Both the position numbers and the translations under genes were made by a program. A model generated the notes under the pieces. It made no database searches and was not told the DNA's origin. It saw only the letters and a program-made list of their open reading frames with translations. DNA of 64,000 nt from an uncultured Candidatus Saccharibacteria bacterium (GTDB taxonomy: Bacteria; Patescibacteriota; Minisyncoccia; Phycocordibacterales; Zambryskibacteraceae): the NCBI GenBank assembly GCA_964349945.1, contig CAYGIH010000001.1, positions 297,218-361,217 of the forward strand, given 5' to 3'. The stretch's first letter is position 1, and each line of letters starts with the position of its first letter. Of this stretch, positions 25,052 through 50,448 are shown one piece after another.

Positions 25052-25161
25052 TTCGAACTCCTTGTGAAAGAACTATGGTTGTAGTACGTCTATATAAATG
25101 ATAGCAGATTTAGAAAGAATGAGATTCTATCTATATATCTGCAATCACGTATACTGAGTTT

Positions 25162-25419
25162 ATGGACACACTACTTCAGTCACAAATATTCTTCTTTATT
25201 TCATCTGTTGGGTTTGTTTTGTTGTGGATTTTCCTCGCTGTCTTTCTCTACTATCTAATCCGCACCACTCGGGCGCTCTCTAGAATAGTAGAGAAGGCCG
25301 AAAAGGATATCGAAGCAATCGGCGACACCACTAGAGAAGTGATTGAAGAAATGCAAGACAGTACAGTGTTTAAATTTTTGTTCGGAAGCAAAAGAAAACG
25401 AAACAAGAAATCAAAATAA
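25162..25419 (+). CDS. Small membrane-anchored protein, hypothetical
   Basis: 85 aa with an N-terminal TM segment and a charged coiled-coil-like tail. Confidence 0.4.
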   Translation: MDTLLQSQIFFFISSVGFVLLWIFLAVFLYYLIRTTRALSRIVEKAEKDIEAIGDTTREVIEEMQDSTVFKFLFGSKRKRNKKSK

Positions 25420-25439: not shown

Positions 25440-25703
25440 ATGAAGAAAAAAATGTCAGCCGGCAAGATAGTTGCCATCGGCGCAGGTGTGGCCGCAGTCG
25501 GAGCAGGTGCTTATGCTCTACTCGGACCCAATGGGAAGAAGAATCAAAAGAAAGCGATGCGAGCAATAAAAAAAGTTGAGAAGAAAGTCGTAAAGGTAGC
25601 AAAGAAAGAGCTCAAGAAGAATGAAAAGCTCGTAAACAAAGGCAAAACCCTCGTAAACAAGGGTAAGGCTGTTGTAAAAAAGTTAGAGAAGCAAATTAAG
25701 TAA
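25440..25703 (+). CDS. Lys-rich small protein, hypothetical
   Basis: 87 aa. A Gly/Ala N-terminal stretch is followed by KK-rich repeats. Confidence 0.4.
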   Translation: MKKKMSAGKIVAIGAGVAAVGAGAYALLGPNGKKNQKKAMRAIKKVEKKVVKVAKKELKKNEKLVNKGKTLVNKGKAVVKKLEKQIK

Positions 25704-26378: not shown

Positions 26379-27635
26379 TTAAACTAACTTCTTCTTATCA
26401 ACTAGAACTATCACCAAAGACAAGAGAGTGAAGATGCCAAGATAAGTAAGGAATACTGAGGCGAAGGAAGCTTCCTCTGTGTATAGTCCAGTATTTGGAA
26501 GAGCGGGTATAAAGTAAGGAGGAGGTACAAAGGTTGTTGTTGCTATAGAAGTAGTCGTAGCTGTTGGAGTAGTGTAAGTGGTAACTGTATTTCTTCGGTG
26601 TCCACCCAGTGTAGGGGCAGCAATATCATCATTTGTAACTGTACATTGATAATTTCCATCTGCTGAAAGTGTAATATTTCCATTTGCATCACAATCTCCT
26701 GCAAATGATTGAGTGTAATTTACATCTGAAGTTTCTGTTATTGCATAAGTTGTAGCCGCAAAGTTATTTAGTATTCCTGAAACAACAGCTGTCGCACCTA
26801 CAAACAATGGGAAGTCTGAAACTATTTTTGTTCTACCGCTGTCATTAATAACCGTCTTAGTAATTGTTAATGAGGCTGGGTTAGAACAAGAAGGCACAGT
26901 GATAGTATTTATGGCTGCGATTCCACCGTTTGAAGTAACTGTTCCTCCATAAGCAAGTGCTCGTCCTACCCAATCAACCGTATCTCCGATAGTGATTCCT
27001 GCTGCATCTAGAACTGTTCCCTTGAATGTTGAATTCGCACCAAGAGTTGTGGCTGCAACTGGAGTCCAAAAGACATCACAAGCCGAAGCGCCGTTTAGGA
27101 CAACTGAAGTATTGGCACCTGTAGTGACTGCTCCACCTGTTGATTTGAAAATATAAGTTCCAGATCCATTTAGAGTGATGGAACCGTTGTCAACAATATT
27201 CATGGCTCCTGCTCGATAGTAACAACCTGGAGGAAAGTGCCCTGGTGTTCCTCCATTTATGACTATGGCATCCAAGTTGCCAACTTCACCAATATTTGTA
27301 CAACTTAAGAGATATTGGTTGTTTAGATTAGCTAGAGCAGCATTTTGGGCAATACCGGCAGCTGTCCAAGCGGCATTGTTTACTTCTGTAGTACCGTTTG
27401 AAGTATTGATTATCCCTAGTCCTGCTATAGAAGAATAGCCGAGAACTCCTAAGGTATTACCTACCACACCAGTGATGGTAGTCGTGGCATTGTGTTGAAA
27501 CAAGTTAGAAATGAGGCCAAAGGTGTTGGCTGTCCCTAGAGAAGGAGTTGTGGCTGCAAGAGCTCTATTTGGCCCTATAAGAGAGAATAGAGCAAACATT
27601 ACCAAACTTGGGATTATATAGTTAATTTTTTTCAT
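26379..27635 (-). CDS. LPXTG-anchored surface protein with an ice-binding-like (DUF3494) N-terminal domain
   Basis: Signal peptide, then LGTANTFGLISN…TTITGVVGN (DUF3494-like). A Thr-rich stalk follows, and the C-terminus has LPNTG, a hydrophobic segment and KKK. Confidence 0.8.
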   Translation of the reverse strand: MKKINYIIPSLVMFALFSLIGPNRALAATTPSLGTANTFGLISNLFQHNATTTITGVVGNTLGVLGYSSIAGLGIINTSNGTTEVNNAAWTAAGIAQNAALANLNNQYLLSCTNIGEVGNLDAIVINGGTPGHFPPGCYYRAGAMNIVDNGSITLNGSGTYIFKSTGGAVTTGANTSVVLNGASACDVFWTPVAATTLGANSTFKGTVLDAAGITIGDTVDWVGRALAYGGTVTSNGGIAAINTITVPSCSNPASLTITKTVINDSGRTKIVSDFPLFVGATAVVSGILNNFAATTYAITETSDVNYTQSFAGDCDANGNITLSADGNYQCTVTNDDIAAPTLGGHRRNTVTTYTTPTATTTSIATTTFVPPPYFIPALPNTGLYTEEASFASVFLTYLGIFTLLSLVIVLVDKKKLV

Positions 27636-27668
27636 ATTTTATTTGATGTTTAATGGTTCATATCTATA

Positions 27669-27694
27669 GACGCACCGGAAGCTGTAATATTACA
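27669..27694 (-). promoter_or_regulatory. ECF-type promoter candidate TGTAAT-N16-CGTC upstream of the LPXTG/sortase operon
   Basis: Minus sense reads tgtaat attacagcttccggtg cgtc. It ends about 34 nt upstream of the ATG at 27635. The same motif occurs upstream of the ECF sigma gene. Confidence 0.45.
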
Positions 27695-28271
27695 GTGCTG
27701 TAATGGAGTTCTCTTTTAAAACGTTAATTTCCTTCTCTAATTTGTGAATGTGTAATTCCATCTTTTTTGTTTTCTCTGTGAATTTATCTGTAAGTCGATT
27801 GGCATGTTGAGCTACTGTCCCAGCTACAGCCATCATGTCTGTAATATCCTCCATGGCGAGCAGTATTATAGGTGGAAATGTACCAGAAGTGGTCTCTTCT
27901 TCAGAGTGAATCTGACGAGCATTCAAAATCATCACCTTGTGCCCAATAAATGGAAACTCATGTTCGACTTCAAAGCCTTTGAAAAAGGTGTTCTTGGGTA
28001 AAATATCTTCTAGTAGTTTTTTTAGAGCGGGAATATCCCATTGACCATCCCCAAGTTCATAAACAACCTTTTTTTCTGTGTCTCTTTGTTCGACTTGAAA
28101 AGTTCTATAAAAAGCTTCGTTGGCAGTCATGACTCTGAGATCCTTATCAAGAATCAAAACTGGTTCTCGCACAACATCCACCACTGTTTTGATGTATGTC
28201 CAACTTTTATTCCACATTTTTTCTATATCTGTCTGCGGATCATCTCGTCTGCGGTTTATTTGTGTTTGCAT
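27690..28271 (-). CDS. PAS-domain protein with a C-terminal coiled coil
   Basis: EPVLILDKDLRVMTANEAFYRTF is a PAS fold signature. No output domain was recognised. Confidence 0.55.
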   Translation of the reverse strand: MQTQINRRRDDPQTDIEKMWNKSWTYIKTVVDVVREPVLILDKDLRVMTANEAFYRTFQVEQRDTEKKVVYELGDGQWDIPALKKLLEDILPKNTFFKGFEVEHEFPFIGHKVMILNARQIHSEEETTSGTFPPIILLAMEDITDMMAVAGTVAQHANRLTDKFTEKTKKMELHIHKLEKEINVLKENSITAL

Positions 28272-28417
28272 ATCTCAAAAGACGTCTTTCTAAGCAAATG
28301 ATTACAAGAAATAACAGTTTTATAAATGTGCTATACTATAGGTGTTTGGATGTCCCCCTTTCGTGCAACATTACTGTAATGCCGTACTAGGCATACTCCT
28401 CTAAATTCACACATTAT

Positions 28418-28444
28418 TGTAATACTTCGGTAATAAAACACGTC
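28418..28444 (+). promoter_or_regulatory. ECF-type promoter candidate TGTAAT-N17-CGTC upstream of the sigma factor gene
   Basis: tgtaat at 28418-28423, a 17-nt spacer, then cgtc at 28441-28444. It lies 24 nt upstream of the ATG at 28468. Confidence 0.45.
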
Positions 28445-28467
28445 TTTGGACGTCTCTAATTACATAT

Positions 28468-28986
28468 ATGACTAAGAAACAGGAAATAAAGAGAAATGAT
28501 GTAATGACTACAGCCCATCATGACTTCAACAAGGGGCTCAATACTCATGCCTTCTTTAAGGTGCACGACCACAACCTCGGTGAAGATTTGGTTCAAGAGA
28601 CTTTTTTGAAGACTTGGAGCTACTTGGTCAAAGGAGGAAAAATCGACGTCATGAAAGCCTTTCTCTATCACATCCTAAATAACCTAATCATCGATGAATA
28701 TAGAAAGAAAAAAGCTACTTCACTCGAAGTATTGATGGAAAAGGGGTTCGAACCAAGCAACAATGATGCTGAAAATATTTTTAATGCCTTGGATGGTAAG
28801 GCACTCCTTCTACTCATTCAACGTCTCCCCATTAACTATCAAAAGATAATGCGCATGCGTTTTATCCAGGATCTATCACTATCTGAGATGTCTCTTATTA
28901 CTGGTAAAACGAAGAACACCCTAGCTGTACAAGTACACCGAGGTTTAGAAAAACTTAGACATCTATACGACCCTGTAATACTTTAA
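28468..28986 (+). CDS. ECF-subfamily RNA polymerase sigma factor
   Basis: Region 2 (LVQETFLKTW…DEYRKKK) and region 4 (LPINYQKIMRMRFIQDLSLSEMSLITGKTKNTLAVQVHRGLEKLR). Confidence 0.85.
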   Translation: MTKKQEIKRNDVMTTAHHDFNKGLNTHAFFKVHDHNLGEDLVQETFLKTWSYLVKGGKIDVMKAFLYHILNNLIIDEYRKKKATSLEVLMEKGFEPSNNDAENIFNALDGKALLLLIQRLPINYQKIMRMRFIQDLSLSEMSLITGKTKNTLAVQVHRGLEKLRHLYDPVIL

Positions 28987-29008
28987 CCCTGACCACGGCA
29001 CGATATGT

Positions 29009-29782
29009 ATGAATAAAAATACAATCATTGGAGGGTTAATCATATTACTAATAATCGGAGGATTTATTATTTACAACAAACCTAGTACTGCCCCATTGTC
29101 TGAAAACAATGTCGCTGATACTACAGAGGAGACCACAAATGTGGTTTCTGATGAGACAAGACAAGGAAATGTGCCTATTATAACTACGAGTGACAAAGTC
29201 GCTCCATCAGACACCACTATGGTAGTCACTGGATCAGTAAACCCAAATGGGGCCTTTACTAACTATTGGTATGAATACGGACTTACAACAAATCTCGGTT
29301 TAAAAACACCTAGCCAGTCAGTGGGGTCAGGATTTGTCTCTATCCCTGCACCAGCGTATATCACTGGACTCAAACAAAGCACCACTTACTATTTCCACCT
29401 TGTTGGAGAAAATCAATTTGGGAAGGCTATCGGTTCAAGATATTCATTTGTCACTACTCAAAATATTCCTGCTCCTACTGGAAGTTCTCCGGTTAGTAAA
29501 ACAATAGCTGCAAGCAAGGTGTCAAGAACTACAGCCACTTTGAATGGTCAAATTAGCTCAAACAAGGCTATCACTCAGTACTGGTTTGAATATGGAACAA
29601 CTCCAAACCTCGGTAATACTACCTCGTTCACCACTCTTGGTTCAGATAATTCAAACATCTTTGTATCTTTACCACTCTCTGGTTTAAGTCCAAATACTAC
29701 TTACTACTTTAGAGTAGACGCTCAAAATCAATTCAGTACGGTCAATGGATCAACCTTAAGCTTCAAAACCAACAAAAATTAA
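29009..29782 (+). CDS. Membrane-anchored protein with two FN3-like tandem repeats
   Basis: N-terminal TM segment. Two ~95-aa repeats (…NYWYEYGLTTNLG…TTYYFHLVGENQFG and …QYWFEYGTTPNLG…TTYYFRVDAQNQFS). It is co-directional with the sigma gene, separated by a 22-nt gap. Confidence 0.55.
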   Translation: MNKNTIIGGLIILLIIGGFIIYNKPSTAPLSENNVADTTEETTNVVSDETRQGNVPIITTSDKVAPSDTTMVVTGSVNPNGAFTNYWYEYGLTTNLGLKTPSQSVGSGFVSIPAPAYITGLKQSTTYYFHLVGENQFGKAIGSRYSFVTTQNIPAPTGSSPVSKTIAASKVSRTTATLNGQISSNKAITQYWFEYGTTPNLGNTTSFTTLGSDNSNIFVSLPLSGLSPNTTYYFRVDAQNQFSTVNGSTLSFKTNKN

Positions 29783-50360: not shown

Positions 50361-50433
50361 GAGCCACCTCCCAGATTCGAACTGGGGACCTTCGCTTTAC
50401 AAAAGCGTTGCTCTACCAACTGAGCTAAGGTGG
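50361..50433 (-). tRNA. tRNA-Thr (anticodon UGU)
   Basis: Minus sense reads GCCACCT TA GCTC AGTTGGTA GAGC A ACGCT TTTGTAA AGCGA AGGTC CCCAG TTCGAAT CTGGG AGGTGGC T. It forms a full cloverleaf with U33 and A37 and a TGT anticodon. No CCA is encoded. Confidence 0.85.
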
Positions 50434-50448
50434 CAAACGAGCCCTATA

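Follow-up and report, generated by a model that had tools for sequence, protein, structure and literature searches.

The extracytoplasmic function (ECF) sigma factors W, M, X and V of Bacillus subtilis recognize promoters with AAC in the -35 element, CGT in the -10 element and a spacer of 16-17 nt, and ECF sigma factors as a rule autoregulate (PMC5758882). Sortases are common in the candidate phyla radiation (CPR) (PMC6744442). In this study, an ECF-type sigma factor gene and its surroundings were analyzed in a window of 64 kb (64,000 nt of contig CAYGIH010000001.1) from an uncultured bacterium of the Paceibacteria/Minisyncoccia. The bacteria of the CPR, or Patescibacteria, are uncultivated, have tiny genomes with few regulators and are believed to lead a host-attached life. 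In this window, the 1.3 kb between 27669 and 28999 are probably the control centre of an ECF sigma regulon. They hold the sigma gene and a divergently transcribed gene for a PAS-only protein, and they are flanked by an operon encoding an ice-binding-like surface protein (IBP) and a sortase on one side, and by the gene of a transmembrane protein with FN3-like domains (TM-FN3) on the other. Two further systems serve for comparison. In the alphaproteobacterial EcfG system (EcfG-NepR-PhyR), the kinases are of the HWE/HisKA2 type, some of them with LOV or PAS inputs, and the promoters read GGAAC-N16/17-CGTT. The short LOV proteins resemble the PAS-only protein in layout; we know of no sigma factor partner of any of them.

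An earlier note on this DNA had proposed that a motif, TGTAAT-N16/17-CGTC, lies upstream of the sigma gene and of the IBP-sortase operon and links the two through an autoregulated ECF sigma factor. Both copies are present as it described them, and searches of Pfam and NCBIfam bore out its gene identifications. The minus-strand copy has the N16 spacer and precedes the 418-aa IBP open reading frame (ORF) (Table 1). The plus-strand copy (TGTAAT at 28418-28423, N17, CGTC at 28441-28444) ends 23 nt before the ATG at 28468 of the 172-aa sigma ORF. A third exact copy, absent from the note, ends 9 nt before the PAS start codon, likewise on the minus strand. Across both strands of the 64 kb, the three exact matches compare with 0.10 expected from dinucleotide-preserving shuffles, and none of 100 such shuffles reached three. 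All three copies fell within 27669-28444 and none occurred elsewhere in the window, whose G+C content averages about 39%. The note had named a motif frequent at random positions of an AT-rich background as the result that would overturn its proposal; since the motif is confined to this short interval, that objection does not hold for the window.

A position weight matrix (PWM) was made only from orthologous loci, with the window and its closest relative (L001) left out. In the window it found four sites of 16.3-18.7 bits, all within 27669-28999 and each directly 5' of a start codon, and the fifth-ranked site in the 64 kb scored 8.7 bits. The four sites precede the genes for the IBP (P_IBP), the PAS protein (P_PAS), the sigma factor (P_sig) and TM-FN3 (P_FN3). 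Under a first-order Markov null, 0.085 sites of at least 16 bits were obtained per window, and four or more sites occurred in none of 200 simulations. This null replaced mononucleotide shuffles, which overestimate the background because CG is depleted in the genome. The motif is real and not a product of chance. The set of promoters first proposed was incomplete for the region: the PWM and the motif scan added those of the PAS and TM-FN3 genes, which had been missed because CGTC was required at the -10 position and only two genes were considered.

The comparison across species covered 80 species-representative loci of Patescibacteria (Paceibacteria/Minisyncoccia), with about ±4 kb each, and 28 metagenome loci, in addition to the 64 kb of this genome. 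The ORFs of these loci came from crude calls and were clustered into families, and the motif was counted for a gene when it lay just upstream. The species-level and metagenome loci together refined the consensus to TG(T/C)AAT-N16-CG(G/T)C-TT, or in its fuller form TG(T/C)AAT-A-a...N...CG(G/T)C-T-T-n-A. The spacer sequence is not conserved and its length, N16, is invariant; the -10 element of the orthologs is mostly CGGC. Of 79 loci, 62 had the motif upstream of the sigma gene, 7-13 nt from the ATG, and it was likewise seen upstream of the divergent PAS ortholog in 41 of 52 intergenic regions, at 9-11 nt from the ATG. An independent scan of PAS-centred contigs recovered the PAS promoter element in 20 of the 28 metagenome loci. 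The distance from CGKC to the ATG was 9-11 nt at 53 of 54 PAS promoters, and the median distance from the -10 element to the start was 9 nt for the PAS, 9 nt for the TM-FN3 and 12 nt for the sigma genes. As the -10 element is only 9-13 nt from the ATG, the mRNAs of these three genes most probably carry a very short leader or none.

When 20 intergenic regions were aligned with MAFFT without guidance, the GTAA and C..C columns stood out as invariant islands. In addition, the loose regular expression [TCG]G[TC]AA[TC]-N16-CG[GT]C was run on 664 kb (the loci and the window) and gave 220 matches against about 20 in shuffles, an enrichment of about 10-fold. Positions left free by the expression were biased too, with T before the G, A-A after the hexamer and T-T-n-A after CGKC. 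Among the promoters of the window, P_FN3 sits in the last codons of the sigma gene and is conserved in L001 and L075. P_IBP kept its hexamer and CGTC in L001, where the middle of the spacer has diverged, and the gene order PAS-IBP-sortase was also found in six loci (L001, L009, L031, L040, L046 and L055). At the level of comparative genomics, both the idea of an autoregulated ECF sigma factor sharing a promoter motif with a surface operon and the tie between the sigma factor and the IBP-sortase operon were upheld. Four sigma orthologs (L042, L044, L070 and L077) had no TGTAAT/CGKC promoter. Their promoters are of the type TTGACT-N17-TATAAT, followed by GTTAAA-like direct repeats, and an OmpR-family regulator and a kinase are encoded beside the sigma gene in L044, L070 and L077. 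These exceptions suggest that the sigma family can lose autoregulation.

The sigma protein consists of the two domains given in Table 1, separated by a gap of 28 aa in which, as in the rest of the protein, Pfam found no sigma-3 domain. It scored 56.5 bits with TIGR02937 (sigma70-ECF), over the cutoff of 42.9. By the definition of PMC7826278 it belongs to the ECF (group 4) sigma-70 factors, and the autoregulatory promoter typical of that group is indicated by its conservation in the orthologs. The protein is 65-71% identical across the Paceibacteria in the 80 species-representative genomes, and its homologs came from Patescibacteria (Minisyncoccia, Paceibacterota and Parcubacteria). None of the named NCBIfam equivalogs (SigW, SigM, SigV, SigX, SigZ and GFO_1088/PG0214) was reached over its cutoff. 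The best score was that of GFO_1088/PG0214 (71 against a cutoff of 130), and the SigM subfamily (68 against 148) and SigW (56 against 209) were also below theirs.

The system resembles sigma W, M, X and V of B. subtilis in its small two-domain sigma factor, bipartite promoter, CGTC-type -10 element, predicted autoregulation and predicted regulon of envelope or surface functions. Moreover, the nearest solved structure is B. subtilis SigW, and NCBIfam placed the SigM subfamily among its best matches, although below cutoff. In contrast to the B. subtilis factors, the -35 element ends in AAT, the -10 element is mostly CGGC in the orthologs and no equivalog cutoff was reached. The mRNAs are apparently leaderless, and the sigma promoter carries an extra tandem hexamer. 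A co-transcribed membrane anti-sigma factor of the RsiW, RsiV or YhdL type is missing as well; no gene is conserved 3' of the sigma gene in the 80 loci, and in its place there is a divergently encoded soluble PAS protein, or a receiver-histidine kinase-receiver (REC-HK-REC) set.

The protein encoded downstream of the sigma gene, TM-FN3, had been suggested to stand in for the classical anti-sigma factor. The data do not bear this out. TM-FN3 follows the sigma gene in only 3 of the 80 loci and has a sigma-type promoter of its own, and with a membrane helix from about residue 6 onward it has no cytoplasmic domain; Pfam detected FN3-type domains only. Given the few loci and the missing cytoplasmic domain, TM-FN3 is not a surrogate anti-sigma factor. 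From its promoter, it is a predicted member of the regulon.

Judged by gene neighborhood, the conserved partner of the sigma factor is the PAS-only protein. It is encoded divergently from the sigma gene in 59 of the 80 loci, with 58-78% identity, and in the reciprocal PAS-centred metagenome scan a sigma gene was located within 2 kb in 17 of the 21 orthologs with enough flanking sequence. The sigma-PAS module occurs in thousands of metagenomic sequences. About a quarter of the sigma loci have no PAS gene nearby. In about 15 of these PAS-less loci (among them L003, L006, L007, L010, L012, L013, L027, L036, L045 and L061), a REC-(PAS-HisKA-HATPase)-REC operon occupies the same divergent position, with the motif ahead of it. 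The two arrangements almost exclude each other: a histidine kinase was found without the PAS protein in 15 loci and with it in three. That two sensory modules alternate at a single position is the strongest indication so far of a role of the PAS protein as signal input for the sigma factor.

Membership of this protein in the PAS superfamily is supported by Pfam PAS_8, by an AlphaFold2 model and by Foldseek. The model (predicted local distance difference test, pLDDT, 82) comprises a helix at residues 12-33, a PAS core at 38-142 and a helix of about 50 residues at 144-192. Foldseek gave a probability of 1.0 to PAS domains of LOV proteins, BvgS, FixL and NifL, the best being the short LOV proteins SBW25-LOV and PpSB2-LOV; by sequence, no close solved relative was found (best E 0.21). 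In the model, the protein shares with short LOV and stand-alone PAS proteins a PAS core followed by a C-terminal J-alpha or coiled-coil helix with no output domain, a layout that is also that of PAS modules placed before the dimerization and histidine phosphotransfer (DHp) helices of kinases. It differs from short LOV proteins in sequence (10-17% identity), and no LOV-type flavin/cysteine motif was recognized by eye at the equivalent position. Outside the Patescibacteria, the same PAS subtype (about 45-55% identity) recurs in tandem arrays of 2-5 copies within large histidine kinases, hybrid kinases and GGDEF proteins (P0241-P0390). Some of the homologs (L110-L160 set) are named CheB/CheR fusion proteins by the Joint Genome Institute (JGI).

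In common with the EcfG system, cytoplasmic sensory proteins rather than a membrane anti-sigma factor would control the sigma factor here. PAS-containing kinases and receivers are encoded beside the sigma gene in the REC-HK-REC loci, and small Transgly_assoc-type stress proteins belong to the predicted regulon, again as in EcfG systems. The differences are that the receivers are REC-only or OmpR-type, the kinases are HisKA-type, most loci have a PAS-only protein instead and the promoter is TGTAAT-N16-CGKC. No PhyR (a sigma-like domain with REC) or NepR was seen near the sigma gene in the loci, and the system is not of the EcfG type. A full-text literature search returned no paper on ECF sigma factors in Parcubacteria or Patescibacteria, nor on a PAS-only ECF partner. 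The main text of the 2021 ECF reclassification (PMC7826278) mentions neither Parcubacteria nor a PAS partner. An autoregulated ECF regulon is known in kind; we found no published description from the CPR, and the partner is unusual.

The families preceded by the motif, identified with Pfam, define the predicted regulon. The motif was found for 52 of 63 members of the PAS family and 45 of 80 of the sigma family, and for secreted PG_binding_1 plus FN3-like proteins (27/42), Ice_binding-like proteins (11/19), the TM-FN3 family (4/4), Transgly_assoc proteins resembling GlsB/YeaQ (6/14), YGGT (6/18), REC-only proteins (6/24) and a DUF948-like small membrane protein (3/4). Another 17 recurrent multi-locus families had no motif hit (0/2 to 0/7 each). 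Among the Ice_binding-like proteins, roughly half have a C-terminal LPNTG or FPNTG sorting signal, and the rest terminate with a PG-binding domain. From these associations and C-termini, the predicted regulon consists mostly of wall-anchored surface proteins together with a few small envelope-stress proteins.

The following mechanism is proposed. By analogy with ECF biology, the sigma factor would read the TG(T/C)AAT-N16-CG(G/T)C-TT promoters and would boost its own synthesis through P_sig in positive autoregulation. It would also induce its divergent PAS partner, which might provide negative feedback like a co-expressed anti-sigma factor. The PAS protein, or elsewhere the REC-PAS-kinase-REC operon, would be the signal input and would control the sigma factor, the PAS protein probably by binding it directly with the long C-terminal helix. 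Activated sigma factor would turn on the ice-binding-like LPNTG protein, the sortase that should anchor it and the membrane-anchored FN3 protein, and the output would be a remodelling of the cell surface for attachment or under envelope stress. A direct interaction of the PAS protein with the sigma factor has, in our judgment, something short of an even chance.

Several points weigh against this proposal. Every promoter is a prediction, made from the observed motif, the degree to which it is conserved, its constant spacing and the genes that it precedes. The counted motif hits came from a regular expression, which makes the constrained positions circular, and for this reason support was drawn from unconstrained positions, fixed distances and family associations. 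The -35 element ends in AAT and not in the AAC typical of ECF promoters. The analysis of this genome covered 64 kb, so that a sigma factor encoded elsewhere could read the motif and distant regulon members are possible. The tandem hexamers at the sigma promoter are the one feature that a plain sigma-only model does not explain. Finally, the evidence for a PAS-sigma interaction is synteny and co-regulation, with which the PAS protein could be an ordinary regulon member, and sigma-PAS fusions were absent among the top 150 representative homologs. The 10 largest or most varied of these, inspected for fusions in which a sigma or anti-sigma domain is joined to such a PAS domain, contained kinases, GGDEF proteins and PAS repeats only.

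The alternative that survives best accepts the ECF promoter and its regulon as genuine and takes the PAS protein for a mere regulon member, with the sigma factor controlled by its own transcription or by an unlinked factor. This account deserves a substantial minority of our belief. Besides the kind of evidence just named, it is favored by the fact that kinases and GGDEF proteins of other phyla use this PAS subtype as a general sensory module, by the quarter of sigma loci without a PAS gene nearby, and by the candidate housekeeping promoter and tandem hexamers described below, which suggest an extra transcriptional control of the sigma gene. However, no gene is linked to the motif more consistently than the PAS gene, which also exceeds sigma in conservation (about 75% identity compared with about 68%). 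The adjacency of the PAS gene to the sigma gene is reciprocal, a two-component sensory operon fills its position when it is absent, and no other candidate anti-sigma factor is conserved in the 80 loci.

A different question is the register of the sigma promoter. The earlier note was right that the sigma gene carries the conserved motif, but its register was 11 bp off: in 62 of 79 orthologs the arrangement is hexamer-N16-CG(G/T)C, which corresponds to 28429 and 28451 in the window. We consider it unlikely that the pairing of TGTAAT at 28418 with CGTC at 28441 is the correct promoter, or that two overlapping promoters 11 bp apart both fire. The TGTAAT-N17-CGTC pair was found in the window and in its closest relative, L001, and a CGTC occurs inside the sigma-promoter spacer of a few other loci (L016, L027, L041 and L046), yet it is the proximal hexamer, N16 and CGKC that are invariant across the orthologs, and all other regulon promoters have N16 and not N17. 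Of 53 sigma promoters, 6 had an internal CGNC placed 15-18 nt from the distal hexamer, which is no enrichment over the PAS promoters used as controls (3 of 40). The N17 pairing is lineage-specific, and the distal hexamer was rejected as the -35 element of a second overlapping promoter of general occurrence. The two CGTC elements at the sigma promoter build an inverted repeat, ACGTC-TTTG-GACGT (28440-28453), with a near copy in L001; a terminator scan flagged it on the minus strand.

With the proximal hexamer as the -35 element of P_sig, the distal one becomes an upstream tandem copy. Such a copy was found in 44 of 49 sigma promoters and in none of 171 other motif promoters, and is by this comparison specific to sigma-gene promoters. 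A second, distal pair, TGTAATgccggTGTAAT, was found in 28 of 52 PAS-sigma intergenic regions (for example at 3869-3885 in L060, and in L009, L024 and L041), about 85 nt 5' of the proximal pair and mostly without a CGKC -10 element. In the window and L001, only TGCAAC-N5-TGTAAT is kept and the approximately 85 nt present in the others are missing, which looks like a deletion in the PAS-sigma intergenic region of the window.

These repeats could be read to mean that the TGTAAT hexamers are throughout operator half-sites of a transcription factor, such as an OmpR/PhoB-type response regulator binding direct repeats spaced by 11 bp, and not -35 elements. The pho-box-like duplication at the sigma gene with its 11-bp period, the second tandem pair without CGKC and the OmpR-family regulators encoded beside the sigma gene in some related loci point in that direction. 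On the other hand, the non-sigma promoters never carry the tandem copy; they have a single hexamer, strictly 16 nt to CGKC and then a short, constant distance to the start codon, which is the geometry of a promoter and not of an operator. The OmpR-type regulators were found only in the loci with TTGACT-N17-TATAAT sigma promoters, which have no TGTAAT repeats, and the loci with the repeats encode no winged-helix regulator. As a general explanation of the hexamers, this is quite improbable. An operator role may apply in a restricted form to the extra tandem hexamers, for which additional docking sites of the holoenzyme or an operator for another factor are the candidates. That the motif is read by another sigma factor, with its gene outside the window, and that the clustering reflects a cascade and not autoregulation, is very improbable: 64 kb of the genome were seen and L062 has a second, distant sigma-like ORF, but 62 of 79 species have the motif directly 5' of this sigma gene, ECF sigma factors as a rule autoregulate (PMC5758882) and the housekeeping-type sigma promoters of L042, L044, L070 and L077 are the exception.

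The ECF promoter P_sig may not be the only promoter of the sigma gene. An extended -10-like element upstream of it, conserved in the orthologs (Table 1), may be a housekeeping-sigma promoter for basal expression of the sigma gene. A transcript starting there could have a long leader containing the tandem hexamers. Rfam gave no match at E<=1 for a structured RNA in the long PAS-sigma intergenic region (27400-29200 searched), and RNAalifold on 13 orthologous leaders predicted 0 pairs; the idea of a structured RNA in this region was rejected.

Table 1. Positions of promoter elements, genes and other features around the sigma factor gene (numbered within the 64-kb window)
Feature	Position	Strand	Description
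P_IBP	27669..27694	-	TGTAAT (27694..27689), N16, CGTC (27672..27669); 33 nt to ATG 27635; PWM 18.6 bits
P_PAS	28281..28306	-	TGTAAT (28306..28301), N16, CGTC (28284..28281); 9 nt to ATG 28271; PWM 18.7 bits
P_sig	28429..28454	+	GGTAAT (28429-28434), N16, CGTC (28451-28454); 13 nt to ATG 28468; PWM 17.2 bits
P_FN3	28974..28999	+	TGTAAT (28974-28979), N16, CGGC (28996-28999); 9 nt to ATG 29009; PWM 16.3 bits
Upstream tandem hexamer TGTAAT	28418..28423	+	Exactly 11 bp 5' of the sigma -35 element; conserved
Remnant of distal tandem pair, TGCAAC-N5-TGTAAT	28364..28380	+	Recognized by comparison with orthologs
Extended -10-like element, TGCTATACT	28329..28337	+	Conserved block TGnTAYRnT in orthologs; points to the sigma gene
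ECF-type sigma factor, 172 aa	28468..28986	+	Pfam Sigma70_r2 at 33-83, Sigma70_r4_2 at 112-163
PAS-only cytoplasmic protein, 193 aa	27690..28271	-	Pfam PAS_8, 24.4 bits against cutoff 21.8
Surface protein (IBP), 418 aa	26379..27635	-	Signal peptide, Ice-binding-like domain (DUF3494), C-terminal LPNTG
Sortase, 218 aa	25707..26363	-	Pfam PF04203, 75 bits
Terminator-like hairpin with T-run	25647..25664	-	40 nt past the sortase stop; consensus scan only
TM-FN3 surface protein	29009..29782	+	N-terminal membrane anchor, two FN3-like domains (Pfam fn3, Pur_ac_phosph_N)

The IBP and the sortase form a sorting system, with a sortase catalytic domain and a substrate that carries an LPXTG motif, a hydrophobic segment and a positively charged tail. 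The C-terminus of the IBP reads ALPNTG, followed by 29 mostly hydrophobic residues and DKKKLV. Its DUF3494 domain scored 62.5 bits with PF11999 (cutoff 28.7), and the protein scored 18.9 with the NCBIfam ice-binding equivalog (cutoff 400); it may act as an adhesin. The closest NCBIfam model of the sortase was class_F_sortase, with 118.6 bits below the cutoff of 166. The sortase gene starts 15 nt past the IBP stop codon, and therefore the two genes are probably co-transcribed; the hairpin downstream of the sortase gene is the probable end of their transcript. A sortase immediately 3' of a substrate with LPNTG, hydrophobic segment and basic tail is the arrangement of the sortase-LPXTG operons of Gram-positive bacteria and the CPR. 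Unlike those, the operon here has an ECF-type promoter and lies beside the sigma gene that is presumably in control. P_IBP overlaps the PAS stop codon (27692..27690), and hence transcripts from P_PAS may also read through into the operon. At 27682-27695, a perfect 14-bp palindrome, CTGTAATATTACAG, holds the -35 element of P_IBP, overlaps the same stop codon and is kept in L001.

In the rest of the window, the motif and PWM scans found no further regulon genes other than at two weak sites, 25065-25090 and 45488, the latter inside an apparent coding sequence. The site at 25065-25090 (plus strand) is TGAAAG-N16-CGTC, scored 7.5 bits and is located 71 nt 5' of a gene for a DUF948-like small membrane protein (25162-25419). 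The motif was present in three of four other loci of this family, and conservation of the site itself is uninformative because the region is 88% identical to L001 throughout. A TATACT -10-like hexamer is located about 6 nt 5' of the ATG of the same gene (25150-25164). This placement suggests that leaderless starts may be common in the organism. The segment 40001-44000 has 49% G+C, compared with about 38-40% in the rest of the window. It contains no rRNA; Rfam detected only two tRNAs in the window (37603-37673 and 50362-50434).

Tentatively, the PAS-plus-helix protein of about 190 aa may represent a new class of soluble, ligand-sensing ECF regulator, acting as an anti-sigma factor or by partner switching and interchangeable with a REC-PAS-kinase-REC phosphorelay. 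Together with the sigma-specific tandem -35 operator, it would then form a master switch for surface and attachment proteins across the Paceibacteria; we hold this wider view as a possibility and not as the expected outcome. What emerges is a promoter consensus open to testing, a sigma-PAS module that is conserved, and a predicted regulon in which nearly all members are wall-anchored surface proteins. The system is compact enough to be reconstituted in Escherichia coli or B. subtilis, with no need to grow the bacterium itself. Direct control of the sigma factor by the PAS protein, if it occurs, would add a new type of ECF regulator, and the surface proteins of the predicted regulon are the molecules most likely to mediate attachment in these bacteria.

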